DNA from: Gemmatimonadota bacterium
Lineage (GTDB): Bacteria; Latescibacterota; UBA2968
DNA length: 64,000 nucleotides
Direction: 5' to 3'
Assembly (NCBI GenBank): GCA_026706845.1
Contig: JAPOXY010000278.1
Coordinates: 4,131 to 68,130 of the forward strand
The notes under the pieces were generated by a model. It ran no database searches, was not told where the DNA came from, and saw nothing but the letters and a program-made list of their open reading frames with translations. The translations under genes and the position numbers were made by a program. Positions within the stretch are counted from its first letter, which is position 1; the number at the start of each line of letters is the position of its first letter. This document shows positions 7,572 through 42,386 of this stretch, piece after piece.

Positions 7572-7661
7572 TTATCACATAAATGTCGTGTTTTTATCAC
7601 ATGTGTAACGCGATACAGGTTTATTTTTTGTATGCTATTACACTACGCCAGGGGAGATTGA

Positions 7662-8639: not shown

Positions 8640-8810
8640 TTACCCGCGGTGAGACATTAGAGGGCCACACAGCCCCATCCCAGATACGAGAGAAAGTTCC
8701 CGCCCTGTCTCGCACCTCTTAATGTCTCATCCCATATAAGCCCTGCTTAAAAGGTAGGCACGGCAGGGCTGATTCTCTCACTCCTCACCTTTTACGTCTC
8801 ACTCCTTATT

Positions 8811-11051: not shown

Positions 11052-11055
11052 TGTT

Positions 11056-12669: not shown

Positions 12670-12692
12670 ATAGGTGAGAGAAAGGAATCACG

Positions 12693-13502: not shown

Positions 13503-13513
13503 GCAGAGGAGTA

Positions 13514-14197: not shown

Positions 14198-14288
14198 TCC
14201 CTCTTTGTGGCGAACACTGTCGTGTAAACGACACGCGATTGTAACACGGCAATGATATTATACTCAAAGCACGACGTATTCTCCCTCT

Positions 14289-14351
14289 TGGGAACCGGCC
14301 CGTGACTCGGTTCCCATTTTTTTTGCCCCGAATTTGAATTCGGGGCTTTTT
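14289..14351 (+). terminator. Tandem rho-independent terminators after phoU
   Basis: Hairpin gggaaccg…cggttccc + T8 (14289-14324), then hairpin gccccgaatt…aattcggggc + T5 (14325-14351). Confidence 0.75.
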
Positions 14352-14440
14352 CGTTGACCCAAAATTGGTACCTGTGTATTTTACTGTTTGAAGATACTAC
14401 TATATTATATTAATATTAAAGAATAAGGTGGTTAGTCTCT

Positions 14441-14980
14441 TTGCCCAATTGCATAAAATCCGAAGCCCGATTTTGCGAGCGCTGTGGGACTTTGCTGGTT
14501 GTAAAAGCAGTTGAAGATCGGGAGAGGCCTTGTTGTCCGTCGTGTGGATTTGTGGCCTATCTTGACCCCAAGGTAGCAGCCGGGGTTATTGTAACCCTCG
14601 ATGGTGGCGTTGTCCTGCTCAAGCGCAATATTGATCCCGGGTTTGGCAAGTGGGTGTTCCCCGGCGGATATGTGGATGCAGGCGAGCCAACCGATGTCGC
14701 GGCTGTGCGCGAAACCCGCGAGGAAGTGGGGTTAGAGGTTGAGATCGGCGAGTTGCTCGGCGTGTTGTCTTATGAAGGGGAACGGGTGGTGCTGATTGTT
14801 TATACTGGACGGGTTGTGGGCGGAAAGTTGGAAGGCAATTTTGAATCGCAAGCTGTGGCTACATTTGCCCCTCGGGATATTCCCTGGAATGATCTGGCTT
14901 TTGACACGACCAGAGAGGCATTGCAAATTTGGGTGGCGCAGTATGGCGAAATGTATGAAAAAGAAAGGTTATTATGCTGA
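14441..14980 (+). CDS. NUDIX hydrolase with an N-terminal Cys4 zinc ribbon (NADH-pyrophosphatase-like architecture)
   Basis: CERCG…CCPSCG zinc ribbon. Nudix box GGYVDAGEPTDVAAVRETREEVGLEV. Overlaps the next gene by 7 nt. Confidence 0.85.
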   Translation: MPNCIKSEARFCERCGTLLVVKAVEDRERPCCPSCGFVAYLDPKVAAGVIVTLDGGVVLLKRNIDPGFGKWVFPGGYVDAGEPTDVAAVRETREEVGLEVEIGELLGVLSYEGERVVLIVYTGRVVGGKLEGNFESQAVATFAPRDIPWNDLAFDTTREALQIWVAQYGEMYEKERLLC

Positions 14981-18277: not shown

Positions 18278-21166
18278 ATGACGAGATGGATAATCGCATT
18301 TGTTGCGATGTCGTTTTTATCCGCATCGGCGATGGCCGGGGTGACGGGTAAAATTGCGGGTCAGATTGTTGACAAAGACGACGGTGGTGGATTGCCCGGT
18401 GCCAATGTGGTGGTTCTGGGCTTGCACAGTGTCTATGGTGCGACATCCGATCCCGAAGGTAATTATGTGATTTTGAATGTGCCCGCAGGCACGTATGACG
18501 TAAAATGTAGCTTTATCGGGTATCAAGATGTGGTGCTCAAAGGCATCAAGGTGTTGCCCGATTTGACTACCGAAGTTGATTTTGTGCTCGCAGAGCAAGC
18601 CCTGGAAGGCGAAACTATCGAAGTGGTGGCGGTGCGCCCGCTGGTGCAGAAAGACAAAACCAGTTCGATGCGCCTCGTAACCAGCGAAGAACTCGAGTAT
18701 ATGCCCGTTCGCGGGTATGCAGCGGCCACGTCCTTGCAGGCGGGCGTGACGAACCGGAACGGCTCGCTTTATATACGCGGCGGGCGGTTTTCCGAAGTTG
18801 ATTACATCGTCGATGGGGTATCGCAGAAGGATTTGCAATTCGGTTCATCGACCACGACCCTGAGCAATGGCGCTATTGATCAAGTATCCGTGATTGTGGG
18901 TGGGTTTGAAGCGGAGTATGGGCGCGTGATGTCGGGCGTTGTCAAGGTGGTGACGCGCGAAGGCGGGCAGCACTATTCGGGGTCTGTGGAATACATTACA
19001 GATGAGATGAATGACCGCAGTTGGGCCGGTGCGCCTTCTTATGGGTATAACACTACCGATGCGACATTTGGTGGTCCGCTCGTTCCCGGAACGAACGGAC
19101 CTTCATTTTTTGTTTCTGGAGAATACATCGATCGCCTCGACCGCAGCCCGCGCTGGGGGGTGGAAGCCCACGAGTGGGAAAAAGACCTGTTGTCACAGGA
19201 AGAGTACGATTTGCTCAGCGAGGGCATATTGCCGCACTATACACTCGAAAGATGGGGCTGGCAGGCCAAGCTGGCGTATCGGTTGTCCGACGAAATCGGC
19301 CTGAAAGCTGGGATTGTAGGCTCAAAAACGGATCGCTTGAGCTATAGTCACACCTATCGCTATAATTTGCGGCACGCGCCGCGTGTAAAAAGAAATAACA
19401 ACTCGGCATTTGCCCGCGTGACCTACACGCTCGGTGCAAAGACCTTTTTCACTTTGCAAACAAGTGTTTTTGACCAGAATTTCAAAGTAGGCGACGGGGT
19501 TCATTTCGACAATTTGCACGACTATGCCCGTCCCCAGGGCAATTCGCGTTATGACGCGGAAAGTTTGTTTGCACGCGGCGATGTGGATTCAACCGAGATT
19601 ACGCGGACAACGGAAACCATCAATGATCGCCCTATAACGTATTTTGAAGGCGATGAAGGGCGCGTGTATGATGATTTTGAGCAAACCAGCTCATTTTATC
19701 TCACGCCTATCGATTTTGATTTGACCAGCCAGATCAGCCGCAATCACCAGTTTAAGCTCGGTTTTGACGTGCAAATGCATCGGTTGCGTTATTACCGGCA
19801 CCTGACCCCCAGTTTGACCTACCGCGGTCCGTTCGTCAGCATAGACGACAGGGGTGGCTTTCAGGATGTAGATCGCTACGGGTATGATTACAACTGGAAT
19901 AATCAGGTAGTCGAGCCTCTAAATTCGACCCGAGACGCGCAAAAAGAACCCATTTTGGCTTCGTTTTACGTGCAGGACAAGATGGAATACGACGGGTTGA
20001 TCATCAATGCGGGCGTGCGATACGATTATTTGAATGCGAGTACCGATGTGCTGGCGAATGAAGGTGTGCCACTGGGTGGCGATTCCACGCTGGACCCATC
20101 GGATTTGGCTGGCAACAGCGTGTATCACAAGATCAGCCCGCGCCTGGGTGTTGGATTTCCCGTCACAGACAAGACTGTATTCCACATGAACTACGGCATT
20201 TTTTACCAGCAACCCAAGCTGGAAGACCTGTATGTTGGTCTGGATTATCTGGAATACAAAGCGCCTTTAGGAGGATATTATTACGCTTTTGGCAATCCGA
20301 ATCTCAGGCCGGAAAAAACCACGGCTTACGAAGTGGGTGTGGTGCAGCAGTTGGGCGGCCATGCCAGTGTCGATGTCACTGCTTATTACAAAGCCGTGGA
20401 AAACCTTGTTCAGGTAACGACAATTCCGTCTGATCCCGTGGCTTTTGCCTCGTTTCGCAACAACGACTACGGAACCATCAAGGGGCTGGACTTTGGTTTG
20501 CTCATGCGTCGCGTAGGGCGCACAACAGCGCGCGTGTCTTATTCTCTGGCTTATGCGACGGGTACGGGATCAAGCCCACAAACCCAGCGGCGGATCGCCT
20601 GGGGCTTCCAACCCGGTGTGACCGAGCCGCCCAAATCGACCTCGCCACTCGACTTTGATCAACGCCACAAAATTGCGGCATCGATTGACTATCGCTTTGT
20701 AGATAAAGATGGCCCGAGGTTCCTGGGTGGTCAGCCGCTGTCCAATGCGGGGATCAATGTGTTGTTCGAAGCCGGGAGTGGGTTCCCCTATACGCCCACG
20801 TTCACGTTTAATGAAGTGACCACAGGGGCTTCGGCGTCACGTCCTTCGGGACCGGTGAATTCCAGCTATGGTCCCTGGACATTCAGGACCGATGTGAAGG
20901 CGAACAAGCGTTTCAAAATTATAGGGCTTCAGGGTGATCTGTACGTCTGGGTGCTCAATTTGCTCAACCGCGCCAACGCAACCAGCCCCGTGTATTCGAG
21001 CACGGGCAGCCCGATGACTTCGGGCTGGTTGAATACAGACGAAGGCCGCAAATTTGTGGAGCGCTTTGGTCAACTGGGCGAAGACAAATACAAGCTCAAA
21101 GAGAAAAGCCCATTCAACTTTGGCACGCCGCGGCAGGTTCGCTTCGGACTCGCGCTCAGCTTCTAA
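18278..21166 (+). CDS. TonB-dependent outer-membrane receptor with an N-terminal CarboxypepD_reg-like domain
   Basis: Signal peptide. CarboxypepD_reg block (GVTGKIAGQIVDKDDGGGLPGANVVVLG…GNYVILNVPAGTYDV), then plug and 22-strand barrel. C-terminal …GLALSF. Confidence 0.8.
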   Translation: MTRWIIAFVAMSFLSASAMAGVTGKIAGQIVDKDDGGGLPGANVVVLGLHSVYGATSDPEGNYVILNVPAGTYDVKCSFIGYQDVVLKGIKVLPDLTTEVDFVLAEQALEGETIEVVAVRPLVQKDKTSSMRLVTSEELEYMPVRGYAAATSLQAGVTNRNGSLYIRGGRFSEVDYIVDGVSQKDLQFGSSTTTLSNGAIDQVSVIVGGFEAEYGRVMSGVVKVVTREGGQHYSGSVEYITDEMNDRSWAGAPSYGYNTTDATFGGPLVPGTNGPSFFVSGEYIDRLDRSPRWGVEAHEWEKDLLSQEEYDLLSEGILPHYTLERWGWQAKLAYRLSDEIGLKAGIVGSKTDRLSYSHTYRYNLRHAPRVKRNNNSAFARVTYTLGAKTFFTLQTSVFDQNFKVGDGVHFDNLHDYARPQGNSRYDAESLFARGDVDSTEITRTTETINDRPITYFEGDEGRVYDDFEQTSSFYLTPIDFDLTSQISRNHQFKLGFDVQMHRLRYYRHLTPSLTYRGPFVSIDDRGGFQDVDRYGYDYNWNNQVVEPLNSTRDAQKEPILASFYVQDKMEYDGLIINAGVRYDYLNASTDVLANEGVPLGGDSTLDPSDLAGNSVYHKISPRLGVGFPVTDKTVFHMNYGIFYQQPKLEDLYVGLDYLEYKAPLGGYYYAFGNPNLRPEKTTAYEVGVVQQLGGHASVDVTAYYKAVENLVQVTTIPSDPVAFASFRNNDYGTIKGLDFGLLMRRVGRTTARVSYSLAYATGTGSSPQTQRRIAWGFQPGVTEPPKSTSPLDFDQRHKIAASIDYRFVDKDGPRFLGGQPLSNAGINVLFEAGSGFPYTPTFTFNEVTTGASASRPSGPVNSSYGPWTFRTDVKANKRFKIIGLQGDLYVWVLNLLNRANATSPVYSSTGSPMTSGWLNTDEGRKFVERFGQLGEDKYKLKEKSPFNFGTPRQVRFGLALSF

Positions 21167-21181
21167 AAGGGAGATCAGGAC

Positions 21182-24100
21182 ATGAAAAGCTTTTTGAATA
21201 TTTTGACGCTGGCTTTGATGAGCGTGAGCATGGCTGGCATTGCGCTGGCTGTATCGCCCTCGCAAAAGCCGCGGCTGGGTAAAATCAGCAATGATCAAGT
21301 GATTGATGTGAACAATATCAGAATGTTTGTGACCAACCAGGGATCGTTTGCCTGGGACCTCGCGACCGGAGCTTCGGGTCTTGAATTTCCCAAGGGCACG
21401 GGCAAAACCGCTGTATTTGCCTCTGGTCCGTGGATTGCGGGCAAGGTCAATGGCGAAATCCGCGTGGCGATTGCCGAGTATTCGTTTGAGTATGCACCTG
21501 GTCCGATTTTGCCCGACGGCACACCCGCCGACCCGCAACTCGATCGATATCGGGTGTATAAGATCAGCAAAGGCGATGGTCCGGAAAATCAGGATTACGC
21601 GCAGTGGCCGGTTGAAGACGGCGCGCCGGTCAATCCCGATGGTACGCCGATGGTGCTGGGAGATCAGACCCTGTGGGCGGTTTATAACGATGCCGATCCC
21701 GGCGTTCACACCAATATGCAGACCGCGCCTCTGGGCGTTGAAATACAGCAGACGACATTTGCGTTTGACCGCACAGGTCCACTGGGCAATGTGGTATTCA
21801 TCAAATTTTTGCTCATTAACAAGGGTGGCAATACCATCGATAGCACGTATGTGTCGCTGTGGTCCGATCCCGATCTGGGGCAGTTCGATAACGACCTGGT
21901 GGGCTGCGATGTGGAGACCAGCTTTGGATTTTGCTATAACGGGTCAAACGTAGATGCGCAGTACGGTTCGTCACCTCCGGCCGTGGGATATGACTTTTTC
22001 CAGGGTCCGATTGGCGATGACGGTGTGGAATTGCCCATGACGTCGTTTAACAAATATATCAACGGCACGGATCCTCATACCGCAGAAGAAACTTATAATT
22101 ACATGAAAGGTCTTGATCCGGATGGCGGCGTGGCCGATCACACCGATCCAATTACGGGTCAGGTGAAGGCTTTTATGGTCGATGGAGATCCGGTTACGGG
22201 CGCGGGCTGGCTTGACGAAAATCCAGCTGATCGCCGCTTTATGCTCACGGCGGGACCGTTTACCTTCGCGCCCGGCGATACGCAGGAAGTGGTGGGCGCC
22301 ATTATTATAGGGCAAGGTCAAGATCGCCTCACGTCGATTACGGCCGCGCGTTTTAACGACACATTTGCACAATCGGCTTTTGATGCTAATTTTGCACTGC
22401 CATCGCCTCCGCCTGCACCCAAAGTGTCCGTAGGTGTGACGGGCGATCACGGGGGCAATGGCAGAATTCAGTTGACCTGGGGAGATGACTCAGAAGTCGC
22501 CTCAGGCGATTATGCATTTGAAGGTTATAACGTGTATCAGGGCGAGTCGGTCGCTGGCCCCTGGAGACGCCTTGTGACTTATGACATGGTCAATGGCTCG
22601 GCCATTATTTTTGACAGTCAGTTCGATGAAGGTGCCGGTGTGGTGATCAACTCGCCCGTGCAATTTGGCGGCGACTCGGGTATTCGGCGCTTTATTGAAC
22701 TGACCGAGGATAAGGTTTTGGGTGGTCGTCTGGTGACGGGTAAAACCTATTATTTTGCGGTGACGGCCTATTCGTTGAATGAGAGCAGGTCGCCCAAAAC
22801 GCTCGAGACATCCATCTCGCCTCTGGCAGATGGGCGCATGACGTTTAAGCCTCTCTCGGATGAGATGATCCCGGCCAATGGTATTGTGCCGCGCGGTCCC
22901 ACTGCGGGTACGCGATTCAATACCGTGGAGGTGGATAGTGTCGTAGAGCACACATCGGGTGTAAGCGATGGTATCGTGGCTGTGGAGGTGGTTGACGATA
23001 CACGGGTTACGGGCGCGTCTTACGAAGTGCGCTTCCGCGATACTGATGCGGGAACGGTGTGGGATCTGATCAATCTGTCGAGTGGTCAGGCCGTGCTTTC
23101 AGATATGCAGCAGCACGCAAATCTAAATGATGCGATTACCAATCCGATTGTCGAGGGTTTGCTCGTGCGCGTGACGGGTCCGCCTCTCGGCATGAAAGAT
23201 TGGGATATTCCATCGGGTGAGCGGTGGATGACCTGGGCGAATACCCGTCCCGATTTGGCTGGTTTTTCTACTGAAGGCTTCAGAGGTGCGATAACGGGCG
23301 ATGTTGCCCATAGTTGGTTTGGCCCAACGAGTGTGCCGCCTTCGCGATTGGTCAATGTGGAATTGCGATTTACGAGTGTGATTGAAGATGATGGCGAGGA
23401 TCAGTACAAACCCCTTGACCTGACGAATCCCAATGTGTCTTATGGGTATCGGTATTTGCGCGCTGCGGGTAGAGCTGCACCTGCACCCGATGAACTAACC
23501 CTGTCCAAAGTGCCTTATGACTGGAGCAATTATATCATCAATACAGAAGGTCCCGGTGTTTATGTGTATCAAGACCGGAGTCCCATTGCTCTGTCGGCAT
23601 GGGATGTTGAAAATAATCGGCGTCTCGAAGTGGGTTGGCTGGAAAACAACTTGGCTGGCGGCCTGGTCAATGGGGCCTGGGGGCCGCCATTTTACGAAGA
23701 TGTACCCCATACGTTTGTCGCTCGTGAGTGGCTATTCATTTTTGATCGGGATTATACCGAGCCGGACGATGATTCCAATTTGGCGGAGTTGTCTCAGGGC
23801 TTGATCAACGATGCGCCGGCACCGCCCATTATGTATATCCTTTTTGTTAATCGCCGCATTCCAGATCGTTTCCCGCAGGATGGCGATTCGTTTTTGATGG
23901 TCGCCAATAAAATCAATACCTCCAACGATGTGTTTTCATTTAGTACGCAGGGGGCTCTCCGCGGTGACCAAGAGTTGGCGGCGGAGGATTTGACAAAAAT
24001 TCTGGCGGTGCCCAATCCGTATCTGGGGCGTTCGTCTTATGAATTCACTTCTCTCGCACGCCAGATGCGTTTTACCAATCTTCCCGCGCAGTGCACGATC

Positions 24101-24304
24101 CGAATTTTCAGTCTGTCGGGTGATCTGGTGCGAACGATTAACCACAATAACGGTCTGTCGTTTGATACCTGGGATCTGAAAACAGATCAGGGCGTGCTGG
24201 TTGCCAGCGGCATTTATATCGCGCATTTTGATGCGCCAAATATCGGTACGCATTTTATCAAGTGCGCGGTGTTCATGGAAGCCGAGACGCTGAATACATT
24301 TTAA
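21182..24304 (+). CDS. Large secreted protein (1040 aa) with a T9SS-type C-terminal sorting domain
   Basis: Signal peptide MKSFLNILTLALMSVSMAGIALA. The last ~90 aa (…VPNPYLGRSSYEF…CTIRIFSLSGDLVRTI…WDLKTDQGVLVASGIYIAHF…) match the Por_Secre_tail / FlgD-Ig-like β-sandwich pattern. Confidence 0.6.
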   Translation: MKSFLNILTLALMSVSMAGIALAVSPSQKPRLGKISNDQVIDVNNIRMFVTNQGSFAWDLATGASGLEFPKGTGKTAVFASGPWIAGKVNGEIRVAIAEYSFEYAPGPILPDGTPADPQLDRYRVYKISKGDGPENQDYAQWPVEDGAPVNPDGTPMVLGDQTLWAVYNDADPGVHTNMQTAPLGVEIQQTTFAFDRTGPLGNVVFIKFLLINKGGNTIDSTYVSLWSDPDLGQFDNDLVGCDVETSFGFCYNGSNVDAQYGSSPPAVGYDFFQGPIGDDGVELPMTSFNKYINGTDPHTAEETYNYMKGLDPDGGVADHTDPITGQVKAFMVDGDPVTGAGWLDENPADRRFMLTAGPFTFAPGDTQEVVGAIIIGQGQDRLTSITAARFNDTFAQSAFDANFALPSPPPAPKVSVGVTGDHGGNGRIQLTWGDDSEVASGDYAFEGYNVYQGESVAGPWRRLVTYDMVNGSAIIFDSQFDEGAGVVINSPVQFGGDSGIRRFIELTEDKVLGGRLVTGKTYYFAVTAYSLNESRSPKTLETSISPLADGRMTFKPLSDEMIPANGIVPRGPTAGTRFNTVEVDSVVEHTSGVSDGIVAVEVVDDTRVTGASYEVRFRDTDAGTVWDLINLSSGQAVLSDMQQHANLNDAITNPIVEGLLVRVTGPPLGMKDWDIPSGERWMTWANTRPDLAGFSTEGFRGAITGDVAHSWFGPTSVPPSRLVNVELRFTSVIEDDGEDQYKPLDLTNPNVSYGYRYLRAAGRAAPAPDELTLSKVPYDWSNYIINTEGPGVYVYQDRSPIALSAWDVENNRRLEVGWLENNLAGGLVNGAWGPPFYEDVPHTFVAREWLFIFDRDYTEPDDDSNLAELSQGLINDAPAPPIMYILFVNRRIPDRFPQDGDSFLMVANKINTSNDVFSFSTQGALRGDQELAAEDLTKILAVPNPYLGRSSYEFTSLARQMRFTNLPAQCTIRIFSLSGDLVRTINHNNGLSFDTWDLKTDQGVLVASGIYIAHFDAPNIGTHFIKCAVFMEAETLNTF

Positions 24305-24336
24305 CGAACTGATTCTGGCTTATGGAGGAATAAATT

Positions 24337-25392
24337 ATGTTCAGGAAGATGATTTTTCTGTTTGCCGCGCTGGCATTGATCGCTCAGGATGCCCGTGCAG
24401 GCGATGAGAGCCGCATCGGCACAGCCGCGGCACAAGAGTTGCGCATTCCAATTGGTTCGCGCGGTACAGCACTTGGAGGCGCCATACTGGCCCATGTAAA
24501 AGGTGCGGAGGCATTGCAGTGGAATCCCTCGGGATTGGTATTTGGAACGCACAAACGCGAAGCCATATTTTCATATCTGGATTATATCGCGGATATGAAT
24601 GTGAATTATTTTGCGATTACTACGCGTCTGCGGGATGATATTTCGGTGGGGATCAGTGCCCGCGTGTTTGCGGTGGGCGATATTGTTGTGACGACCGAGG
24701 AGTCGCCCGAAGGCACGGGCGAGATACTCTCCCCGAGGTTTTCGTGTGTGACATTTACATATTCGCAGTTGTTGACAGACCGCGTGTCGTTTGGCACCAC
24801 GATCAAATATATCCACGAGGCGATTAAGCGAGAGGTCGCCAATGGTCTGGCGTTTGATTTTGGTTTTCAATACAAAACCGCGCTAAAGGGTTTGACGCTG
24901 GGTATTGCTATGCGAAACTATGGTCCAGACCTGCGGTTTGATGGTCCGGATCTGGACCGGGTGGTGAAATTGCAAGACGCGGTGCCAGAGGCCGATCCCC
25001 AAGCCGGGTCGCGCAGTTTCCGCACATCGCTGGCAGCGGCTGAGTTGCCCACGTCTATAGAAATCGGTTTTTCCTATGCATTCTATGAAGATGCGCTGGG
25101 CAAAGCTGCTTTTTCTGCGACCTTCCGCAATAATAATCTGGCGACTGACGAGTATCAGGCTGGCGTTGAGTATTCGATGAAGCAAATTCTTCAGTTGCGC
25201 GGAGGGTATGTGGCTTCTCCAACAGGTGATGCCCTGCCCAGCGGGTTTAAGAAGGAATATATTCTGGGCCCGACGTTTGGCTTTGGTCTGAATGTGCCCA
25301 TGGGCAATATGGCTTTTCAGGTGGATTATGCCTATGGCAAGACAGAGTACTTTCAGGATAATCACTGGTTGACTGTGGGACTCGGGTTTTAG
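24337..25392 (+). CDS. PorV/FadL-like outer-membrane β-barrel
   Basis: Signal peptide. N-terminal hatch-like motif …GSRGTALGGAILAHVKGAEALQWNPSGLV (the FadL/PorV NPxGL motif). C-terminal …VGLGF. Adjacent to the T9SS-CTD protein. Confidence 0.5.
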   Translation: MFRKMIFLFAALALIAQDARAGDESRIGTAAAQELRIPIGSRGTALGGAILAHVKGAEALQWNPSGLVFGTHKREAIFSYLDYIADMNVNYFAITTRLRDDISVGISARVFAVGDIVVTTEESPEGTGEILSPRFSCVTFTYSQLLTDRVSFGTTIKYIHEAIKREVANGLAFDFGFQYKTALKGLTLGIAMRNYGPDLRFDGPDLDRVVKLQDAVPEADPQAGSRSFRTSLAAAELPTSIEIGFSYAFYEDALGKAAFSATFRNNNLATDEYQAGVEYSMKQILQLRGGYVASPTGDALPSGFKKEYILGPTFGFGLNVPMGNMAFQVDYAYGKTEYFQDNHWLTVGLGF

Positions 25393-34311: not shown

Positions 34312-36762
34312 ATGATGCAAGATCACGCACGGGTCGTTATCATCGGTGCCGGTATCGCCGGAACCAGCGTCGCCTACCACCTTGGGCAACTGGGGTGGAA
34401 GGACATTATGGTCCTGGAAAAGGGGCCGCTGTTCAAAACCGGCGGCTCGACCTCCCACGCCCCCGGCCTCGTTTTCCAGGTCAATGTCTCGCGCCTGATG
34501 TCTGTTTTTGCACGCGAGACGACCCAACTCTACCAACGCCTCAGTCCACCCGACGGCGAGCCATTGTGGTTTGAGGTCGGAGGATTGGAAGTAGCGACGA
34601 CGCTCGAGCGGTTCGACGACCTCAAGCGCAAGGTCGGGGCTGGCCGGGCCTGGGGCATTGATACCGGTTTGCTCGGTCCGGACGAGGTCCGCGAAAAAAT
34701 CCCGCTGTTGACCGACCCGATTTACGGTGCCCTGTACACGCCTAGCGATGGTATTGCACGGGCCTGGCAACTGGCCGAGACCATGGCCGAGCACGCCCAG
34801 GCTGGCGGGGCTGCACGGTTTTATGGAAATACCACAGTAACCGGCATTGACGTGGTCGAAGGTCGCGTGGTTGCGGTGCATACTGATCGCGGGCATATCC
34901 GCACCGAGGCCATCGTCTGCGCGGCCGGGATATGGGGGCGCCTGATCGGTCAGATGGCCGGTGTCTCCCTGCCGCTGGTGCCTTTTTGCCACCTGTACGC
35001 CGAAACAGCCCCCTTGCCCGAACTCGCTGGGGAAACCATGCAGTACCGGCACCCCATCCTCCGCCATCAGGATCGGGCGATCTACTGTCGGCAAGAGGGC
35101 GAGGCGTACCTGGTCGGTTCCTACGATCACGAGCCTTTGCGCGTCGAGCCAGAGAATATCGAATCACACGAGGAAGCTCCCGTGATGCCTTCCATGCGGC
35201 CCTGGTCGGCCGCAGCCTTCCGCGAGGGGATGATCTCGGCCAGCAAACTGCTGCCAGCACTTGATCGAGCCGCACTATCCCGCAAGGTCAACGGCCTGTT
35301 GCTGTTTACACCAGACGGAATGCCCGTGCTCGGCGAGGCCCCTCAGGTCAAGGGGTTTTGGTCGGCCGAGGCGGTGTGGATCACGCATGCTGGTGGTGCT
35401 GGCAAGGCGGTCGCCGAGTGGATGGCAAACGGTCAGCCAACCATGGATTTGCGCCACGCCGACCTCGCCCGCTTCCTTCCCTACCAGCGTACCACATCCT
35501 ACGTCGTCCAGCGCAGTACGCAGCAATACCGCGAGGTTTACGACATCATTCATCCGGCCCAGCCTATAGACGCCCCGCGCGGCCTGCGCCTCCTCCTGTG
35601 CCACCAACGCTATCGGGAACTGGGGGCCGTCTTTGTCGAAAGCGCGGGATGGGAACGGCCTCAGTGGTTTGAGACCAACGCGGTTCCCATTGACCACAGC
35701 CACACCCGCAGCGGTTGGGCGGCGCGTTTTTGGTCGCCGATCATCGGCACAGAGCATCTCGCCGTCCGCGAGCGCGTGGGGCTTTTTGACCTGACCCCGT
35801 TTGCCAAATTTCGCGTATCCGGGCCGGGGGCTCTGGCGTTCTTGGACTATTTGGCCGCCAACCGCATGGATCAACCCCAGGGCTGCATTACCTACACTTC
35901 AATGCTCACGCCGCAGGGAGGCATCCAGTGCGACCTGACCGTAACACGCCTTGCCGACGATCAATTCCTCATCGTCACAGGCGGCAGCACCGCCGAGCGC
36001 GACAAGGCGTGGATCCGCCGTTACATGCCCACAGATGGCTCGGTTGTCCTGTGCGATGAGAGTAGCCGCTGGTGTTGTATAGGCGTTTGGGGTCCCAGGG
36101 CGCGCGAACTACTGCGTCGCACTACCGACGCCGATGTGTCTGACCGCGCATTTCCCTACCTGACCGCGCGGCATCTCGACATCGGCGCGATTCCGGTCCT
36201 CGCTTTGCGGATTTCCTATGTCGGCGAACTCGGCTGGGAACTTTACGCGCCGTTCGAGTTTGGGCAAGCCCTGTGGGATGAGCTCTGGCAAGCCGGTCAG
36301 CCCCACGGCGCAATTGCCGCCGGGCTGGGGGCTTTTGACTCCCTGAGGCTCGAAAAGGGCTATCGGCTTTGGGGAAACGAACTCCACACAGAGTACAATC
36401 CGCTGGAGGCCGGGCTTTCTTTTGCGGTGAGGATGGAGAAGGGGGACTTCATTGGTCGGGCAGCTCTTGCCAGGGCTCGTGAGCAAGGTCCGGCGCAAAA
36501 ACTCTGCTGTCTGACCCTTGACGTACCCAACGCGGTGGTGATGGGGAACGAGCCGATTTGGATCAACGGTCGCATAGGCGGTTATGTCACCAGTGCCAAT
36601 TACGGCTACTCCATTGACCGCGGTATCGCCTACGGTTATCTGCCGGTGCAACACGCCCGCGTGGGAACCCAGGTGGAGATCGAATACTTTGGCGAGTCTT
36701 TTCCAGCCACGGTCGCCTCCGAACCCTTGTGGGACCCGCAGATGACGCGCCTCAAGTGCTGA
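34312..36762 (+). CDS. Dimethylglycine/sarcosine dehydrogenase-family flavoprotein (N-terminal FAD/DAO domain fused to a C-terminal GcvT-like folate-binding domain)
   Basis: 816 aa. VVIIGAGIAGTSVAYHL dinucleotide fold. C-terminal aminomethyltransferase-fold half. Confidence 0.8.
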   Translation: MMQDHARVVIIGAGIAGTSVAYHLGQLGWKDIMVLEKGPLFKTGGSTSHAPGLVFQVNVSRLMSVFARETTQLYQRLSPPDGEPLWFEVGGLEVATTLERFDDLKRKVGAGRAWGIDTGLLGPDEVREKIPLLTDPIYGALYTPSDGIARAWQLAETMAEHAQAGGAARFYGNTTVTGIDVVEGRVVAVHTDRGHIRTEAIVCAAGIWGRLIGQMAGVSLPLVPFCHLYAETAPLPELAGETMQYRHPILRHQDRAIYCRQEGEAYLVGSYDHEPLRVEPENIESHEEAPVMPSMRPWSAAAFREGMISASKLLPALDRAALSRKVNGLLLFTPDGMPVLGEAPQVKGFWSAEAVWITHAGGAGKAVAEWMANGQPTMDLRHADLARFLPYQRTTSYVVQRSTQQYREVYDIIHPAQPIDAPRGLRLLLCHQRYRELGAVFVESAGWERPQWFETNAVPIDHSHTRSGWAARFWSPIIGTEHLAVRERVGLFDLTPFAKFRVSGPGALAFLDYLAANRMDQPQGCITYTSMLTPQGGIQCDLTVTRLADDQFLIVTGGSTAERDKAWIRRYMPTDGSVVLCDESSRWCCIGVWGPRARELLRRTTDADVSDRAFPYLTARHLDIGAIPVLALRISYVGELGWELYAPFEFGQALWDELWQAGQPHGAIAAGLGAFDSLRLEKGYRLWGNELHTEYNPLEAGLSFAVRMEKGDFIGRAALARAREQGPAQKLCCLTLDVPNAVVMGNEPIWINGRIGGYVTSANYGYSIDRGIAYGYLPVQHARVGTQVEIEYFGESFPATVASEPLWDPQMTRLKC

Positions 36763-36775
36763 GAACCTGGCATGC

Positions 36776-36817
36776 TGAAAAAAAATAATACGCCCCCGAA
36801 AGGAAGGCGTATTATTG
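36776..36817. terminator. Bidirectional terminator between the convergent DMGDH-like and GcvT-like genes
   Basis: 11-bp perfect stem aataatacgcc/ggcgtattatt with an A-run upstream. This reads as hairpin + T-run on the minus strand. Confidence 0.7.
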
Positions 36818-36840
36818 TCTCTGGTGATTGGAGCATCCTG

Positions 36841-38151
36841 TTAGTTGACGTAATCGCGGCCTTTGCGCTGCGCCACTTCGCGGATGTTGGGGTTTACCGA
36901 TGGGCGGAAGGGCACCTCGACGACCTCGGCGGACACCGCGCAGTCGCCGTATTCAGGGGGGAGGTGGACGCGCAGGGCTGTTCCGGTGGCCCGCATTTTC
37001 CAGGGTACATAAGCCAGCGCGATGTTGGTTTCCAGCTCGGGCGAAAACCACGGCGAGGTGACGTAGCCGACCGGATCGTCGCCTTCGGCGGCACTGATTA
37101 GCCAGAAGTCGTGGGCATAGTCTGTCACCGGCATTCCCCCGAAGGTGATCCCGACCAGTACATTGCGAAATGGAGGTTTCCCGGCTTCGATGGCCGCCCG
37201 TACCTCGTTGAGCTTTTGCTTGCCGATGTAGGAGGCCTGCTTTTTGCGCGGCACCTGGTAGCTGAGGTTGCACTGGAACGGCAGGGTTTCCTGGTCCATG
37301 TCCTGACCCCAGGAGAGGATGCCGGCAGCGATGCGTCGGTGATGAGCCGGGGCAATTACCATCAGTTGGTGTCGCTCGCCGATTTCGAGCAGCGTGTGCC
37401 ACAGGTCTTCGGCGTACAGGGTGGCGTCTCTGAGGTAAATTTCGTAGCCCTTCTCGCCGCTAAAGCCGGTTTGCGAAATCACGACTGGATGTCCGGCCAC
37501 TTTCCCTTCCATCAAGCCATAAAACGGAATATCGCGCACGCGCTCGCCAAACAGATCGACCATCAATGCCTCGGACTTCGGCCCTTGAATCTGCACCGGT
37601 GCCACATCGATTTCGCCGATGGACACGTCGTAGCCCAGCCCCACGTTGACACCGCGCAACCACAGTTCCAGGTCGCTGTCTGCCAGCGAAAACCAGTACT
37701 CGTCCTCGGCGAGGCGCAACAGCACGGGGTCGTTGAGTATGCCGCCATCTTCGTTGCAGAGGATGACGTATTTGCCGTGCATCGGTTTGATGAGGGTGGC
37801 GTCGCGGGTGATGACGTAGTTGACAAAGGCGGCGGCGTCTGGCCCCTTTACCTGGATCTGGCGCTCGACTGCCACGTTCCACAGCGAGACGTGGTTGACC
37901 AGTGCGTCGTATTCGACCATAGCCCCGCCATCTTGCGGGCGCACATAGCCGCGCGGGTGATATATGCGGTTGTACACAGTGGCACGCCAGCACCCGACTT
38001 CCATTGACAGGTGCCAATACGGAGATTTGCGGACGCGGGTGGAAATGAGCATTTCCACCGGGGTCGCACCGGACTGGCGGAGATTAATGGGCACGCGCCG
38101 ATCAGACTGATCCACGCTGGTGCATTGAGTAGCTGATCGAGGGCGGTTCAT
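36841..38151 (-). CDS. Aminomethyltransferase (GcvT/DmdA-like) family protein
   Basis: GcvT-fold sequence. Start chosen at the internal ATG (MNRPRSATQ…) preceded by GGAG. The 53-aa upstream extension in the listed ORF lacks an RBS. Confidence 0.75.
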   Translation of the reverse strand: MNRPRSATQCTSVDQSDRRVPINLRQSGATPVEMLISTRVRKSPYWHLSMEVGCWRATVYNRIYHPRGYVRPQDGGAMVEYDALVNHVSLWNVAVERQIQVKGPDAAAFVNYVITRDATLIKPMHGKYVILCNEDGGILNDPVLLRLAEDEYWFSLADSDLELWLRGVNVGLGYDVSIGEIDVAPVQIQGPKSEALMVDLFGERVRDIPFYGLMEGKVAGHPVVISQTGFSGEKGYEIYLRDATLYAEDLWHTLLEIGERHQLMVIAPAHHRRIAAGILSWGQDMDQETLPFQCNLSYQVPRKKQASYIGKQKLNEVRAAIEAGKPPFRNVLVGITFGGMPVTDYAHDFWLISAAEGDDPVGYVTSPWFSPELETNIALAYVPWKMRATGTALRVHLPPEYGDCAVSAEVVEVPFRPSVNPNIREVAQRKGRDYVN

Positions 38152-38192: not shown

Positions 38193-38453
38193 CTATGGGG
38201 AAAAATGGCTTCGTGTCCTGTTTTTGTACAACCCCAAAATCCCCACCGCGATCAATACGCCCGCTGTTGGTCCCGCCATGTCCAATCCCAACCAGAATCC
38301 TTCTTTCCACTCTATGCTTTCAGTGCCAAACATTTCATCTACTACGACCACTTGCTGCTTGTTTTTCGTGAAGATCTGAGTGCCGTCTATTATCCACTTT
38401 GCACCTATACCTATCGCGAGTATAAATGCGATTACGCTGATGGTTTTCCACAT
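38193..38453 (-). CDS. Small 2-TM membrane protein, last gene of the Cyc2-like operon
   Basis: 86 aa with two hydrophobic helices. 18 nt downstream of the β-barrel/cytochrome gene. Confidence 0.35.
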   Translation of the reverse strand: MWKTISVIAFILAIGIGAKWIIDGTQIFTKNKQQVVVVDEMFGTESIEWKEGFWLGLDMAGPTAGVLIAVGILGLYKNRTRSHFSP

Positions 38454-38471
38454 GGGTTCTCCACACAGGTG

Positions 38472-39614
38472 TTAATAAAACACGTGCAATTGCAGCGCGT
38501 AGCGCGATGAGCGAAAGGTCTCTGTGTCTAGGATGCGATATTCGGGGCGCAATTCAATTTGCGGTGTTAGAAATATTTGTATGCCAAGTACAGCCTGCCG
38601 CGTCATCAGATCAACAGAGCGCGCTGATGCGCGGATGTGCGTTACTTCGCCGGTTTCTCCTCGTGCGAACAAAAGCAGTCCGGGTATTGCTTGAAGCGTG
38701 ATATCGACCGAGGCGGTTTTTGCCTCGCGCACGCCTTTCTTATCGGATAGGACATATTCGGCCATGATGGCGATCTTGTCCTGTAATCCGACGCCTGCAA
38801 AGAGATTTGTCATCAAAAAGTCGCCGTTTTTGAGCCACGATCCTCCCAGATAAAAATTTATTCTTTGTTCGACCAATCTGGGCCACAATACTATGCGCCC
38901 CAGGTATGAGGGTTTATCGTGGTTTTCGATCAAGGAGGCGTCTTGTACGGTATTTTCAGAGAGTGCCCGGGCAGAATAAATGCCTGCGGTTAGCGATAGC
39001 CACAATTTTTTGTAATAGTGTACTTCTGCGCCGTATTCTGCGTAATTGGGCGCGATTAGCGATGTGGCTCCGGCAACGTCGGGCGTTTGCCGCACGAGCA
39101 TGGTGTGGTCGTCATACCGCATGCCAATGGTTGGCTGAAAATGTCCGACGCGCAATGCGGGCCAGTTGTAATTGGGTTGATATATTGCCGATGCTGTCCA
39201 CGCGCGCTGTCCCGCGTATTTTTCGGGACCAAAATTATAAGAGCCTTCGATTTTCAGGGCGTTTGAGGGGCGGACAACACTGTATAGGGCGACTTGCATG
39301 GGGAATACTTTGCGCTCGGCTTCTGGCGATGTATGAGATCGCGCCATTTGTCCGCGGAGATCCGCACCCATGAGTACCAGGCCATCGGCATAAGCGGTTT
39401 TGCCCGGCAAGACGTAATTGGGTGCGAGCAATCCCACGCCGTCCATCGAGTACTGTCCCAATTCGTCCCGCTGTGCCCCGCCCTGCGCGGTGATGTGACA
39501 GTTCACACACCGATTTGCAGTCAGCAATGCAAACTGCGATAGCGCATCCGCCTGCCCCACAGAGCACAGCAGGATTAACAGCCCGAATAATCTAAAATAT
39601 GCGGTCTTGCCCAT
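38472..39614 (-). CDS. Secreted outer-membrane β-barrel with a single N-terminal CXXCH haem-binding motif: Cyc2-like fused monohaem cytochrome-porin candidate
   Basis: Signal peptide MGKTAYFRLFGLLILLCSVGQADA. Haem motif …QFALLTANRCVNCHITAQGG at residues 36-40 (nt 39495-39509). Remainder is β-strand-rich with an aromatic C-terminus (…LQLHVFY). ~380 aa, as for the short Cyc2 clusters. Confidence 0.5.
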   Translation of the reverse strand: MGKTAYFRLFGLLILLCSVGQADALSQFALLTANRCVNCHITAQGGAQRDELGQYSMDGVGLLAPNYVLPGKTAYADGLVLMGADLRGQMARSHTSPEAERKVFPMQVALYSVVRPSNALKIEGSYNFGPEKYAGQRAWTASAIYQPNYNWPALRVGHFQPTIGMRYDDHTMLVRQTPDVAGATSLIAPNYAEYGAEVHYYKKLWLSLTAGIYSARALSENTVQDASLIENHDKPSYLGRIVLWPRLVEQRINFYLGGSWLKNGDFLMTNLFAGVGLQDKIAIMAEYVLSDKKGVREAKTASVDITLQAIPGLLLFARGETGEVTHIRASARSVDLMTRQAVLGIQIFLTPQIELRPEYRILDTETFRSSRYALQLHVFY

Positions 39615-39623
39615 GTTATGCCT

Positions 39624-40226
39624 TTATTGTCTTTTTGTTTTGTGTTCATTCTTCCCCGCCACTTCTCCGCCAAAGGTCTGCCCATCTCCGGGGAGGCTGC
39701 CGCCGAAATTCACTGGTAGGCCGGTCAGGTCGCGCAGAAAGATCTGCAGGCGGATGATGTGTACATTGCCCGCTCCCATGCGCATGTTCAGGCCATTTAT
39801 AACTTCTGGCGTGATAAAATCGATATTTTGTTGCAGAAAAGTGACCCCATCGAGATAATCTACAAAGGCGGCTTCAAATTCCTCGATGTGCAATCTGAGC
39901 AGATACGGATTTGTGGGACGCATGTCGTGCAAGGTAGATTGAATGGCGTGAATTCGCGCGATTATGTTGCTTAAAAATTGCCGCGACCAGTAGAGCGGGA
40001 TCAAGTTATTAATGGTCTCGGTGGTTACGCCGCTGTATTCCCAGAGAAAGACGTCAATAGATGTAAAAACCCGGTGGATGTCGGCGACATAGGCATCGGC
40101 CTCATCCGCGGTGACGTGGTCATACGTTTCTTCAGCAGATGGTTCGGGCGCGGGTGTCACGGGATTGGATGAACCACATCCCGTGTACAACGCAAGCAGT
40201 GCAAAACACAAAAGCCATCGTTTCAT
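39624..40226 (-). CDS. Hypothetical lipoprotein
   Basis: Lipobox LYTG|C after the signal peptide. 9-nt gap to the Cyc2-like gene. No recognisable domain. Confidence 0.5.
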   Translation of the reverse strand: MKRWLLCFALLALYTGCGSSNPVTPAPEPSAEETYDHVTADEADAYVADIHRVFTSIDVFLWEYSGVTTETINNLIPLYWSRQFLSNIIARIHAIQSTLHDMRPTNPYLLRLHIEEFEAAFVDYLDGVTFLQQNIDFITPEVINGLNMRMGAGNVHIIRLQIFLRDLTGLPVNFGGSLPGDGQTFGGEVAGKNEHKTKRQ

Positions 40227-40275
40227 AAAAGGTCTCCTGAGGCGCGTTAAAGCTGAGGGCTAGGTATCTCGCATC

Positions 40276-40788
40276 TTACCTCTTACCCATATAAAGCAGA
40301 CGCCGTTTCTGATATCTTCTGGTATTGTTTAAAAAACGCGCGATTTCGTCGTCTGATAATGTGCGACGCGGTTTGGCGGGCACCCCGGCAACAAGTGTGC
40401 GCGGCTCGACCTCTGCTCCCTCTAATACCAGTGCGTGGGCAGCCACCAGCGCGGATTTACCCACTGCTGAGCCAGTCAATACAGTTGCTCCCATTCCGAT
40501 GGTTACGCCCTGTTCTATTCGACAACCGTGCAAGATCGCATTGTGCCCCACGGTTACATTTTTGCCGACATTACAGGGATAACCCGGGTCGGTGTGCACG
40601 ACAGTGCCGTCCTGAATATTTGAGCCTTCGCCGATTACAATGGGTTCAACATCGCCCCGAATCACGGCATTGAACCAGATGCTCGCGTGTGCTTCAATCA
40701 CCACATCGCCAATGACAACAGCACCGGGCGCGATATAAACCGACGGGTCAATGTGAGGGGTTTTGTCCTTATAGGGCAAAATTGTCAT
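40276..40788 (-). CDS. γ-carbonic anhydrase / hexapeptide-repeat (LbH) family protein (YrdA/PaaY/CaiE-like)
   Basis: Left-handed β-helix hexapeptide repeats with the conserved His-containing motif (GHNAILHGC). Start at MTILPYKDK… preceded by GGAG. The listed ORF carries an RBS-less 24-aa extension. Confidence 0.8.
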   Translation of the reverse strand: MTILPYKDKTPHIDPSVYIAPGAVVIGDVVIEAHASIWFNAVIRGDVEPIVIGEGSNIQDGTVVHTDPGYPCNVGKNVTVGHNAILHGCRIEQGVTIGMGATVLTGSAVGKSALVAAHALVLEGAEVEPRTLVAGVPAKPRRTLSDDEIARFLNNTRRYQKRRLLYMGKR

Positions 40789-40792: not shown

Positions 40793-41755
40793 TTATCTCC
40801 GATTGTCACCCTCAACAGGACCCAGTGTGAAGGTCTTGCCGCTTTGCGTGGCTCTGGCACCTGTTACCAGCCCGCTTACAAAACCAAAGATGCCAAAAAT
40901 TGCAGCGGCCCAAATTGTCGTCTCTTTGACGTCGGCATTGGTCTGCCAGGCGGCAAGTGCCCCGGTCAATGCGCCCATTGCGGCGCCTCCAATTCCCTGT
41001 ATAATTGCCCGTTCCATCGCAACTGAGCCGCGTTCTCCAAAGAAATGCACTTTGTGAATTTCATCTACAGTGACTTTTTGAACGCGCAGATCCGTCTCGA
41101 TCAAAATGTTACTATCTTCATAGGCGGGCAAAAATTCGCCTTTGATTTGTTGCCCATTCTTCAGGGTGACCATTCCGGGAAAGCGCGTTTGTACTTGAAA
41201 ACGCACCCTGCGTTCTTCAAAAGAAATGTCATCCTCGGTATATTGCGGATAGGTCTCGTCTATTTTGGAGGAGTCTGTCAGTGTGTATTCGCCCTTTACG
41301 ATTTCATCGAAATGTTCGATGTATTCTCTCAAGCGGCGCAGATTATTTTCACTTTGCACATTCACCAGCCGCGTTTCAATGCGAGGGCCTGATCGATATT
41401 GAATTTTAATGGCGAGTTTGCCATTGTCTCGCTTCATAAATTCGGCAAATTGAAATCCCGCTACGCCCAGATGCAAGATCGGAAGATCTATTTTTTGAGT
41501 ATAAACGGTTGCTCCCTGAAATAAAGCGTAGCGATTGCTTTCTTCCAAGTCGATTTGAGGACCCACCCGGGGACTTAACACGATGCGTGTGCCCGATACG
41601 CGCCGCACATCAACTATTTCCCATCCATCATCTTCCAATTCGTGAATTCCGCGGTCGTATTGCGTTTCCTTTTCGCTTTCGGCTGCCCGAACAGGGCAAA
41701 TAGAAAAAAGTAAAAAGCTCATCGCAGTAATCAATGAAATCGATTTTTTAATCAT
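40793..41755 (-). CDS. Hypothetical secreted protein with a C-terminal glycine-zipper (2-TM) region
   Basis: Start at MIKKSISLITAMSFLLFSICPVRAAESE (signal peptide, RBS GAGGAG). C-terminus GIGGAAMGALTGALAAW…AIFGIFGFVSGLVTGA is glycine-zipper-like. Confidence 0.45.
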   Translation of the reverse strand: MIKKSISLITAMSFLLFSICPVRAAESEKETQYDRGIHELEDDGWEIVDVRRVSGTRIVLSPRVGPQIDLEESNRYALFQGATVYTQKIDLPILHLGVAGFQFAEFMKRDNGKLAIKIQYRSGPRIETRLVNVQSENNLRRLREYIEHFDEIVKGEYTLTDSSKIDETYPQYTEDDISFEERRVRFQVQTRFPGMVTLKNGQQIKGEFLPAYEDSNILIETDLRVQKVTVDEIHKVHFFGERGSVAMERAIIQGIGGAAMGALTGALAAWQTNADVKETTIWAAAIFGIFGFVSGLVTGARATQSGKTFTLGPVEGDNRR

Positions 41756-42386
41756 GAAATTCTCCTCGCTCACCACAGATTGCCTCAAAAATGCCATCTA
41801 AAATATACGGGCGGTACTTGTGAAACCGCAGACGGGGGTGAAACCATGTGCCTTCAGGGTCTGATGTGCCGGGCACGGAAACCATGCTGGTCAGGTCGAT
41901 TCTGGACAATGTCGCTTCCCCCAAAAACCATTCTGCAATTTGTCTGGCCGTGCGATTTGGCCGTCCATTTTCTATCGAAATTTCCCTGTCCATAGGGAAA
42001 AATAGCGCGCCATCTCCCAACACGGATACATCTTTTTGATATGCCAGTGCGGCTTCGGTTATTTGCCCGGGTTCCGTTATGACAACACCTGTTACACACG
42101 CAATATCCTCTTTGGATACCACGTCGCTAAATAGCGTGCGAATGCGATTTTGCAGCCCGCCGTAGCTGTCTAAAAGATGTGATGACCGGGGGTTCACGCC
42201 AGCTTGAAGAAGGCCCAGTGTATTGTAGCGCGAACACTCAGAGACAAAATCATCTTCGTTGTCAAACAGTCCCACGCCAATCAGATTTTCGCCATCCATT
42301 ACATTGAGTTGCGTGAGGCCCAAGTCTGATTTGTGTTGAAGCAAATCGTAAAAACGCCGCACATCCTGCTCGTAAAAACGCTTCAT
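41748..42386 (-). CDS. Hypothetical protein (no confident family assignment)
   Basis: 212-aa ORF tightly packed between argH and the glycine-zipper protein. Codon usage is consistent with its neighbours. Confidence 0.4.
   Translation of the reverse strand: MKRFYEQDVRRFYDLLQHKSDLGLTQLNVMDGENLIGVGLFDNEDDFVSECSRYNTLGLLQAGVNPRSSHLLDSYGGLQNRIRTLFSDVVSKEDIACVTGVVITEPGQITEAALAYQKDVSVLGDGALFFPMDREISIENGRPNRTARQIAEWFLGEATLSRIDLTSMVSVPGTSDPEGTWFHPRLRFHKYRPYILDGIFEAICGERGEFHD

Follow-up and report, generated by a model that had tools for sequence, protein, structure and literature searches.

A putative fused monohaem cytochrome-porin of Latescibacterota: Cyc2-like in design, probably a separate family

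Does a bacterium of the Latescibacterota carry the iron oxidase Cyc2, or a related outer-membrane protein of another family? The question is raised by a stretch of 64,000 nucleotides (nt) from contig JAPOXY010000278.1 of assembly GCA_026706845.1 (hereafter the window, 64 kb), in which four minus-strand genes lie head to tail at 38193-40788. One of them encodes a protein of 380 amino acids (aa) that an earlier note on this DNA credited with the defining architecture of Cyc2. The open reading frame (ORF), the gene order and the coordinates are all as that note described them. We find that this protein, here called the haem-porin, follows the Cyc2 design and probably represents a family apart from Cyc2, related to it as a deep sister at most. 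Our preferred reading, to which we assign a probability of about 0.5, is that it is a 16-strand outer-membrane porin with one c-type haem, which acts as an electron conduit and belongs to a family of its own within the Fibrobacteres-Chlorobi-Bacteroidetes (FCB) group. The gene and its parts are as follows.

38472-39614, minus strand: gene of the fused monohaem cytochrome-porin, 380 aa, from the ORF translation
39543-39614, minus strand: signal peptide, residues 1-24, with cleavage read between ADA and LS; the model has a helix at residues 2-17
39495-39548, minus strand: N-terminal haem block, residues 23-40 (D-A-L-S-Q-F-A-L-L-T-A-N-R-C-V-N-C-H), with C36, C39 and H40 invariant; aligns with the Cyc2 block
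39039-39137, minus strand: loop between strands 5 and 6, residues 160-192 (the 'L3' position), with strand limits taken from the model
38475-38513, minus strand: last strand and C-terminal beta-signal (...RYALQLHVFY), with near-invariant Q375 and H377

The N-terminus, MGKTAYFRLFGLLILLCSVGQADA followed by LSQF, has the basic n-region, the hydrophobic core and the A-D-A cleavage site of a Sec signal peptide, as judged by eye from the sequence. CVNCH forms residues 36-40 (nt 39495-39509), or positions 12-16 once the signal peptide is removed, and the C-terminus reads ...LHVFY, with Tyr as the last residue. The earlier reading of a cleavable signal peptide, a single CXXCH about 12 residues into the mature protein and a beta-rich region with an aromatic end is borne out by these features and by the barrel predicted below.

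CVNCH is the sole CXXCH among the credible ORFs of the window, and a CXXCH lies within the first 110 residues in 205 of 206 full-length database homologues. Family members are only 27-45% identical overall, yet C36, C39 and H40 are invariant. The haem motif is therefore not a chance match, and we infer that a c-type haem is attached there. The 25 residues flanking CXXCH are among the best conserved of the protein, and the consensus of the family over this block is A-L-P-Q-F-[SA]-L-L-T-G-N-[RK]-C-x-N-C-H-V-N-x-Q-G-G-G-L-R-N-E-L-G. Over the 206 sequences, G45, R49 and G53 join the three haem-site residues as invariant or nearly so. Further positions of this kind are G83, D85 and R87, M106 and Q107, P161, G164, D168, D169, H170 and T171, and, toward the C-terminus, R318, E320, P357, E358, R360, Q375 and H377. 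Among these, H377 (conservation 0.97), M106 (0.99; nt 39297-39299) and H170 (0.95) are candidate sixth haem ligands, a role suggested by conservation.

The family is small. A word-indexed search of 5.8 billion clusters retrieved 212 proteins, and an exhaustive phmmer search of 1.84 billion proteins retrieved 231 representatives at 50% identity. Every match bears the name 'hypothetical', and almost all have a length of 370-450 aa. The hosts are metagenome-assembled genomes (MAGs) of Latescibacterota, Kapabacteria (Kapaibacterium), Ignavibacteria, Melioribacter, Chlorobiota and Bacteroidota. At eight loci with the typical synteny, the MAG of origin bears the label Hyphomicrobiales, Alphaproteobacteria, Patescibacteria or Didemnitutus, which seems to reflect faulty binning or labelling and not a true host. 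In the literature searched we found no description of the haem-porin family, of a link between Latescibacterota and Cyc2, or of a module that joins a haem-porin to a Rieske protein.

We modelled the haem-porin by AlphaFold2 with a 25-sequence alignment. The model has a mean predicted local distance difference test (pLDDT) score of 74 and a predicted template modelling (pTM) score of 0.75. It shows a closed 16-strand barrel from residue 80 to the C-terminus, preceded by the signal helix, a low-confidence stretch at residues 17-46 and a short helix. Low confidence at residues 17-46 would be expected of a haem peptide that is modelled without its haem. The barrel is of the OprP type, with OprP as the best solved structural match, which suggests that the protein resides in the outer membrane. 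The likeness to OprP and OprO (PDB 2O4V, 4RJW/4RJX) is one of fold only, as sequence identity is 10-15% and neither of them carries haem. The family profile found nothing at E <=10 among PDB sequences, and no Pfam porin family, Porin_O_P included, matched the haem-porin above threshold; a weak match to Pfam OMP_b-brl (E 0.018) lies below the cut-off.

The loop between strands 5 and 6 measures 33 residues and bears R-Y-D-D-H, with P161, G164, D168-D169-H170 (nt 39105-39113) and T171 near-invariant. It is the best conserved loop of the barrel, with a mean identity of 0.58 compared with 0.07-0.53 in the other loops. In general porins, the constriction is formed by loop L3, which bends into the barrel. 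By analogy with that loop, the strand 5-6 loop may fold into the pore and is a candidate for both the pore constriction and a cation-binding site.

Cyc2 proteins reportedly fall into clusters 1-3, a division said to go back to McAllister in 2020 and to be found in Keffer 2021 as well. As defined by Keffer et al. (2021; PMC8406198), Cyc2 has a signal peptide, one CXXCH, a 16-strand OprO/OprP-like porin and a length of at least 365 aa, and OprO/OprP are reported as its structural match. The motif AXPXFAR[Q/K][T/Y] before CXXCH is called unique to Cyc2 and is used as a screen, PXL stands a few residues after CXXCH, and Cyc2 further counts as an Fe(II) oxidase whose haem potential is near +200 mV (PMC8406198). 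Sequence homology to a Cyc2 of clusters 1-3 is judged by BLAST at E <=1e-5 or by a FeGenie HMM score above its cut-off. The haem-porin shares the Sec-type N-terminus, the single N-terminal CXXCH, the aromatic end, the length (380 aa) and the predicted 16-strand barrel with its OprO/OprP-like structure. It departs from Cyc2 in the motifs. At the place of AXPXFAR[Q/K][T/Y] it reads A-L-S-Q-F-A-L-L-T, which agrees at six of nine positions in register, and PxFAR[QK][TY] occurs in 0 of the 263 homologues retrieved. PxL is absent after CXXCH, where the family continues from CH with V-N-x-Q-G-G-G-L-R-N; Pro stands at H+3 in only 48 of 212 sequences, and Gly in 210 of 212 where the Leu of PxL would fall. 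The claim of a defining Cyc2 architecture is thus upheld for signal peptide, haem motif, barrel and length, and fails for FAR[QK][TY] and PXL.

Comparison with Cyc2 itself was based on a set assembled here. Bait peptides led to N-terminal fragments of 46-70 aa, from these to 80 metagenome loci and finally to 57 full-length proteins (416-524 aa), which are Cyc2 by the published motif definition, not by organism. A protein search with one of these comparators returned MAG proteins only, with no named iron oxidiser among them. A motif-defined Cyc2 was also modelled for structural comparison, and its predicted model likewise shows a 16-strand barrel, with OprP as the best solved match and an aromatic residue at the C-terminus. 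Cyc2 of A. ferrooxidans, Cyc2PV-1 of Mariprofundus and Cyt572 of Leptospirillum likewise have a signal peptide, with CXXCH about 11-12 residues into the mature protein. The Cyc2 block A-V-P-[SA]-F-A-R-Q-T-G-x-x-C-x-x-C-H aligns in register with that of the haem-porin, so that both follow A-x-P-x-F-[AS]-x-x-T-G-x-x-C-x-x-C-H. Relative to the first Cys, the two families have A(-12), P(-10), F(-8), A/S(-7), T(-4) and G(-3) in common. In both, the Ala at -12 is the last residue before the mature N-terminus, and an F-P pair occurs at the equivalent place in strand 2.

This resemblance is detectable mainly when profiles are compared with each other. A hidden Markov model (HMM) built from the 57 Cyc2 proteins gave the haem-porin family about 15-21 bits, and the reverse search gave 20-27 bits, in the haem block only. 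No Cyc2 signature was seen among the 150 matches listed from the 231 hits of the exhaustive phmmer search. Profile-profile comparison with Cyc2 reached 94-97% probability with the signal peptides included and 77-85% without them, and the 20-column N-terminal block alone reached 95.7% (E 1e-8). A second, independent Cyc2 alignment matched over 115 columns, strands 1-3 among them, at 85.7% probability (E 5.5e-6). The controls stayed low: reversed profiles gave at most 4% probability, and an unrelated monohaem cytochrome family scored 22. Column shuffles that keep only CXXCH scored 22 +/- 2 (maximum 29.7, n=150) compared with 35.0 observed, i.e., the haem block resembles Cyc2 by about 6 standard deviations above the CXXCH-only baseline. 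The likeness of the haem block to Cyc2 that the earlier note had suggested is therefore real at six positions in register, and inexact where Leu-Leu takes the place of Arg-Gln. The HMM check that it proposed yields only 15-27 bits with the models built here, and profile-profile comparison picks up the haem block and the first strands.

Several differences set the two families apart. In the haem-porins, Leu-Leu replaces the Arg-[Gln/Lys] of FAR[QK] and QGGG replaces PxL; the proteins are shorter (about 380-400 aa compared with 416-524 aa), and their barrels have no detectable sequence similarity to those of Cyc2. The hosts differ as well, being MAGs of Latescibacterota, Ignavibacteria, Kapabacteria and Chlorobiota, and so do the gene partners described below. 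Because the haem-porin is invisible to sequence searches that start from Cyc2, we treat it as a separate family. A distant kinship with Cyc2 is probable, but under the current definition of Cyc2 the haem-porin falls outside it.

Other conduits offer a looser parallel. MtrAB, MtoAB and PioAB are likewise outer-membrane barrels that pass haem-borne electrons over the membrane. They consist of a 26-strand barrel round a separate decahaem protein and can reach solids, whereas the haem-porin, unlike MtrB, PioB or MtoB, is one polypeptide with one haem motif and 16 strands.

The window holds one further candidate barrel, a 317-aa protein (6618-7571, plus strand) with a signal peptide, a beta-rich sequence, a C-terminal Phe and no Pfam family. 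Its gene lies directly 5' of the pst operon, and the product is probably a barrel of the outer membrane, perhaps a phosphate porin. Kinship with the haem-porin was considered and rejected, as this protein matched the haem-porin profile at 0.2% probability in hhalign, a comparison that also served as a control. The pst cluster itself runs pstS-pstC-pstA-pstB-phoU (7662-14197). It includes a PstC-like ABC permease (BPD_transp_1) of 746 aa (8811-11051, plus strand) in which some 200 aa (residues ~230-416) that match WD40/beta-propeller models are inserted, an architecture unusual for a phosphate permease.

Which genes accompany the haem-porin was assessed by comparing 78 genomic loci; partner counts are given for the 19 loci, at least 77% identical, that form the clade of the window and for 49 loci outside it. 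The gene for a small protein with two transmembrane segments (two-TM protein) lies directly 3' of the porin gene in 16 of the 19 loci of the clade and in 31 of the 49 others, including Ignavibacteria and Kapabacteria. The two-TM protein is a conserved partner of the haem-porin across phyla. Outside the clade, a Rieske gene (PF00355) follows on the same strand, no more than 3 kb away, in 45 of 49 loci, and a YceI gene (PF04264) is present in at least 23 of 49 by a position-restricted HMM count, with 33 loci in all by tblastn. Two Latescibacterota loci (68% identical) have both Rieske and YceI. A small monohaem cytochrome c lipoprotein is encoded near the porin gene, mostly upstream, in about 22 loci. 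None of the two-TM, YceI, Rieske and small cytochrome genes occurs within 2.5 kb of Cyc2 in 80 canonical Cyc2 loci, and TonB, ABC-transporter, Feo or Efe-type genes do not recur at haem-porin loci.

The Rieske partners resemble those of bc1 and b6f complexes in carrying both cluster-binding boxes, and C-x-H-x-x-C...C-x-C-H with the two extra cysteines typical of the disulfide of bc1/b6f centres is found in 39 of 46. Their best solved relatives are all bc1/b6f Rieske subunits. A twin-arginine motif is present in 43 of 46 and a lipobox-like Cys in 32 of 46. The YceI partners match PF04264 and solved polyisoprenoid-binding proteins. In contrast to the bc1/b6f context, these Rieske and YceI proteins stand alone, measure 150-190 aa and carry twin-arginine and mostly lipobox-like signals, and their genes adjoin an outer-membrane haem-porin gene instead of a cytochrome b gene. 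Such a pairing was not found in the literature searched. The earlier note saw no partner cytochrome and no evident electron sink; this is true of the window, but in other lineages a bc1-type Rieske gene with YceI lies directly downstream.

Some further features of these loci are of note. The monohaem lipoprotein, seen in five loci among others, is about 135 aa long, with one CXXCH and weak Haem_bd and PccH matches. Some loci that encode it also hold a CHRD-domain protein with a type IX secretion system (T9SS) sorting tail or a PsbP/DcrB-like lipoprotein. In the clade of the window, a stand-alone GCV_T gene (36841-38148, minus strand) fills the place that YceI and Rieske take in other lineages. 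An 816-aa fusion of an FAD oxidase (DAO) with GCV_T, resembling dimethylglycine/sarcosine dehydrogenase, converges on this gene (34312-38148). Two Latescibacterota loci (~80% identical), L001 at 981-11592 and L016 at 8001-14608, carry the haem-porin gene in tandem multiples, in L001 as two intact 383-aa copies plus truncated ones. Each tandem copy is preceded by the gene of an acidic 317-321-aa protein with EQGI repeats and no Pfam match, which looks like a transposase or nuclease, and the two-TM gene follows only the last copy.

The three neighbours that share the cluster in the window are the following.

38193-38453, minus strand: two-TM protein gene, 86 aa, 18 nt 3' of the cytochrome-porin gene; hydrophobic segments at residues 4-23 and 57-76
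39624-40226, minus strand: lipoprotein gene, 200 aa, with lipobox LYTGC
40276-40788, minus strand: gene of a left-handed beta-helix (LbH) protein of the gamma-carbonic-anhydrase family, 170 aa; NCBIfam NF050158 and Pfam Hexapep

The gaps between the four genes measure 49, 9 and 18 nt, in line with the spacing of 9-50 nt noted earlier, and the descriptions of the neighbours as a lipoprotein and a small two-TM protein are likewise sound. The LbH protein matches the NCBIfam gamma carbonic anhydrase NF050158 over residues 3-166 (E 1.6e-52, below the curated cut-off of that family) and Pfam Hexapep (E 7e-17). Library matches thus place it in the gamma-carbonic-anhydrase/PaaY/CaiE group, as had been proposed. 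As the NF050158 match spans residues 3-166, the ATG at 40788 is supported as the start of its gene. In the same scan of the four genes, the haem-porin, the lipoprotein and the two-TM protein had no Pfam or NCBIfam family. A promoter and terminator scan of the operon gave counts at chance level and was uninformative.

The term operon needs qualification. The two-TM gene is conserved next to the porin gene across phyla, but the gamma-carbonic-anhydrase and lipoprotein genes are found near it in no loci but those of Latescibacterota with at least 58% identity, and the pair is 1-5 kb away in 8 of 18. Homologues of the lipoprotein were found only in Latescibacterota loci of 58-85% identity, where they always adjoin the gamma-carbonic-anhydrase gene. 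We therefore rejected both as core partners, since they are linked to the porin gene in close relatives only, and even there often with a break; they are part of the upstream block of arg genes, not of the haem-porin module. The junction between the lipoprotein and haem-porin genes is a variable insertion spot. Eight loci have extra genes there, which include small zinc-ribbon-like proteins. Upstream in the window (40793-42386, minus strand) lie two genes for proteins of 334 aa and 212 aa without known function, whose ORFs overlap by 50 nt; the 334-aa protein has a Gly-zipper-like hydrophobic tail at its C-terminus. Together with argH and the gamma-carbonic-anhydrase and lipoprotein genes, these two form a conserved block in Latescibacterota relatives.

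How might such a protein work? A soluble redox species, most plausibly Fe2+, would enter the pore and bind at the R-Y-D-D-H loop between strands 5 and 6. It would pass one electron to the haem, which would plug the periplasmic mouth of the barrel, and the electron would then move to a periplasmic carrier. In most lineages this carrier could be the protein encoded in cis, a Rieske [2Fe-2S] protein of the bc1/b6f type (high-potential), with a twin-arginine signal and usually a lipobox. The YceI-type protein, as an isoprenoid- or quinone-binding protein, and the two-TM protein may link or organise the path toward the inner membrane. In the clade of the window, where only the two-TM partner is at the locus, either the carrier would be encoded elsewhere or the conduit would work differently. 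By analogy with Cyc2, Fe(II) oxidation by the haem-porin is plausible. The fuller proposal is that this is a second, independent type of fused haem-porin conduit, specific to the FCB group, with a dedicated high-potential Rieske lipoprotein as acceptor and possibly a YceI-bound isoprenoid quinone and a small inner-membrane anchor. We put it forward tentatively and hold it somewhat less likely than not to be right as a whole.

A number of observations weigh against the preferred reading of an electron conduit related to Cyc2. Similarity to Cyc2 is restricted to about 20-115 columns, and the barrel alone gave a non-significant 2-7% probability in profile-profile comparison. The haem environment may differ from that of Cyc2, as Leu-Leu stands for R and Q/K and the haem-stabilising PxL is absent. 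The N-terminal segment has pLDDT <50, so that the placing of the haem at the pore is tentative. The 64-kb window contains no other c-type cytochrome, multihaem ORF, terminal oxidase or ccm genes, the genes that flank the haem-porin are housekeeping or heterotrophic, and a search of the window found no Rieske, YceI or small cytochrome homologues. Such genes are missing near the porin gene in all 19 loci of the clade. Every host of the family is an uncultured MAG, and the choice of Fe(II) as substrate follows from the analogy with Cyc2 and the expected high potential of a bc1-type Rieske centre.

Part of this evidence fits a haem-porin outside respiration, which would serve iron acquisition, protection from peroxide or redox stress, or redox sensing at the surface. 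The housekeeping and heterotrophic surroundings without respiratory genes point this way, and the clade of the window keeps the gene intact at 92-96% identity despite having no Rieske or YceI linkage; the conserved D-D-H loop would suit a metal-selective uptake pore as well. Such a role, though a real possibility given these surroundings, seems rather unlikely to us, as the downstream Rieske gene in 45 of 49 loci of other lineages, often together with cytochrome c, is more typical of an electron-transfer chain, and as the locus lacks recurrent TonB, ABC-transporter, Feo or Efe-type genes. Another alternative is an ordinary diffusion porin whose CXXCH is not used for haem attachment: the barrel resembles general and specific porins, and genes for cytochrome c maturation are not seen in the window. 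It is hard to reconcile with the invariance of C36, C39 and H40 among proteins of 27-45% identity, with the conservation of the 25 flanking residues and with the association of the family with Rieske and cytochrome c genes, and we consider it highly improbable.

The two remaining alternatives accept electron transfer and differ on direction or family. Electrons could be exported to acceptors outside the cell, for example Fe(III) chelates, Mn or humics. Cyc2-type conduits are reversible in principle, the hosts are mostly heterotrophs, Ignavibacteria have repeatedly been tied to Fe(III) reduction in the literature, and cytochrome and Rieske partners would be needed for export too. Rieske proteins of the bc1/b6f class, with their high midpoint potential, are poor donors to low-potential Fe(III) minerals. 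The Rieske proteins linked to the haem-porin have the disulfide cysteines of this class and bc1/b6f subunits as best solved relatives; these features suggest a high potential, so that electron uptake from Fe(II) fits better than export to ferric minerals. In addition, one haem set behind a narrow pore can make no contact with solids, an argument already made for Cyc2 (PMC8406198). Export is thus unlikely. Still less likely is that the protein is a true Cyc2 iron oxidase, a divergent member of cluster 1, 2 or 3 that works as in Mariprofundus or Acidithiobacillus. The shared architecture and fold neighbour, the partial N-terminal motif in register and the profile-profile probabilities of 77-97% would agree with this, and some of the 'Cyc2 cluster 3' proteins that FeGenie-based surveys report in Ignavibacteriales MAGs could belong to this family. 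Against it stand the two motifs by which Keffer et al. screen (PMC8406198) and which are missing here, HMM scores that never extend beyond the haem block, the 150 listed phmmer matches free of the Cyc2 signature, and the absence of the two-TM, YceI and Rieske partners from the 80 canonical Cyc2 loci.

The genomic setting is that of an FCB-type genome with a T9SS, as the earlier note held. Loci 92-96% identical in about 15 named MAGs assign the window to the Latescibacterota, and a PorV-like T9SS gene is found at 24337-25392 (plus strand). The latter ends a same-strand series (18278-25392) that begins with a SusC-like TonB-dependent receptor (18278-21166), followed by the gene of a 1040-aa protein with no Pfam match (21182-24304).

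What is new here is that fused monohaem cytochrome-porins come in a second family, which has a signature and a set of partners of its own. Cyc2, recognised at present by FAR[QK], is the main genetic marker from which microbial Fe(II) oxidation is inferred in genomes and metagenomes. A structurally equivalent family without FAR[QK] would be missed or mis-sorted by Cyc2 screens, and a capacity for extracellular electron transfer may thus be hidden in the widespread Latescibacterota, Kapabacteria and Ignavibacteria of soils and sediments. Comparison of the two families separates what the haem blocks share (A-x-P-x-F, T-G and CxxCH) from what is specific to each (Arg-Gln or Leu-Leu, PxL or QGGG). 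The near-constant pairing with a bc1-type Rieske protein provides a concrete candidate for the periplasmic acceptor, a link that is uncertain even in neutrophilic Cyc2 systems. If the fuller proposal of an independent conduit with a dedicated Rieske acceptor is true, electron uptake from the outer membrane to a Rieske protein would be a route not described for any organism, and the oxidation of metals or other electron donors would extend to Latescibacterota, Kapabacteria and Ignavibacteria, lineages taken to be heterotrophs.

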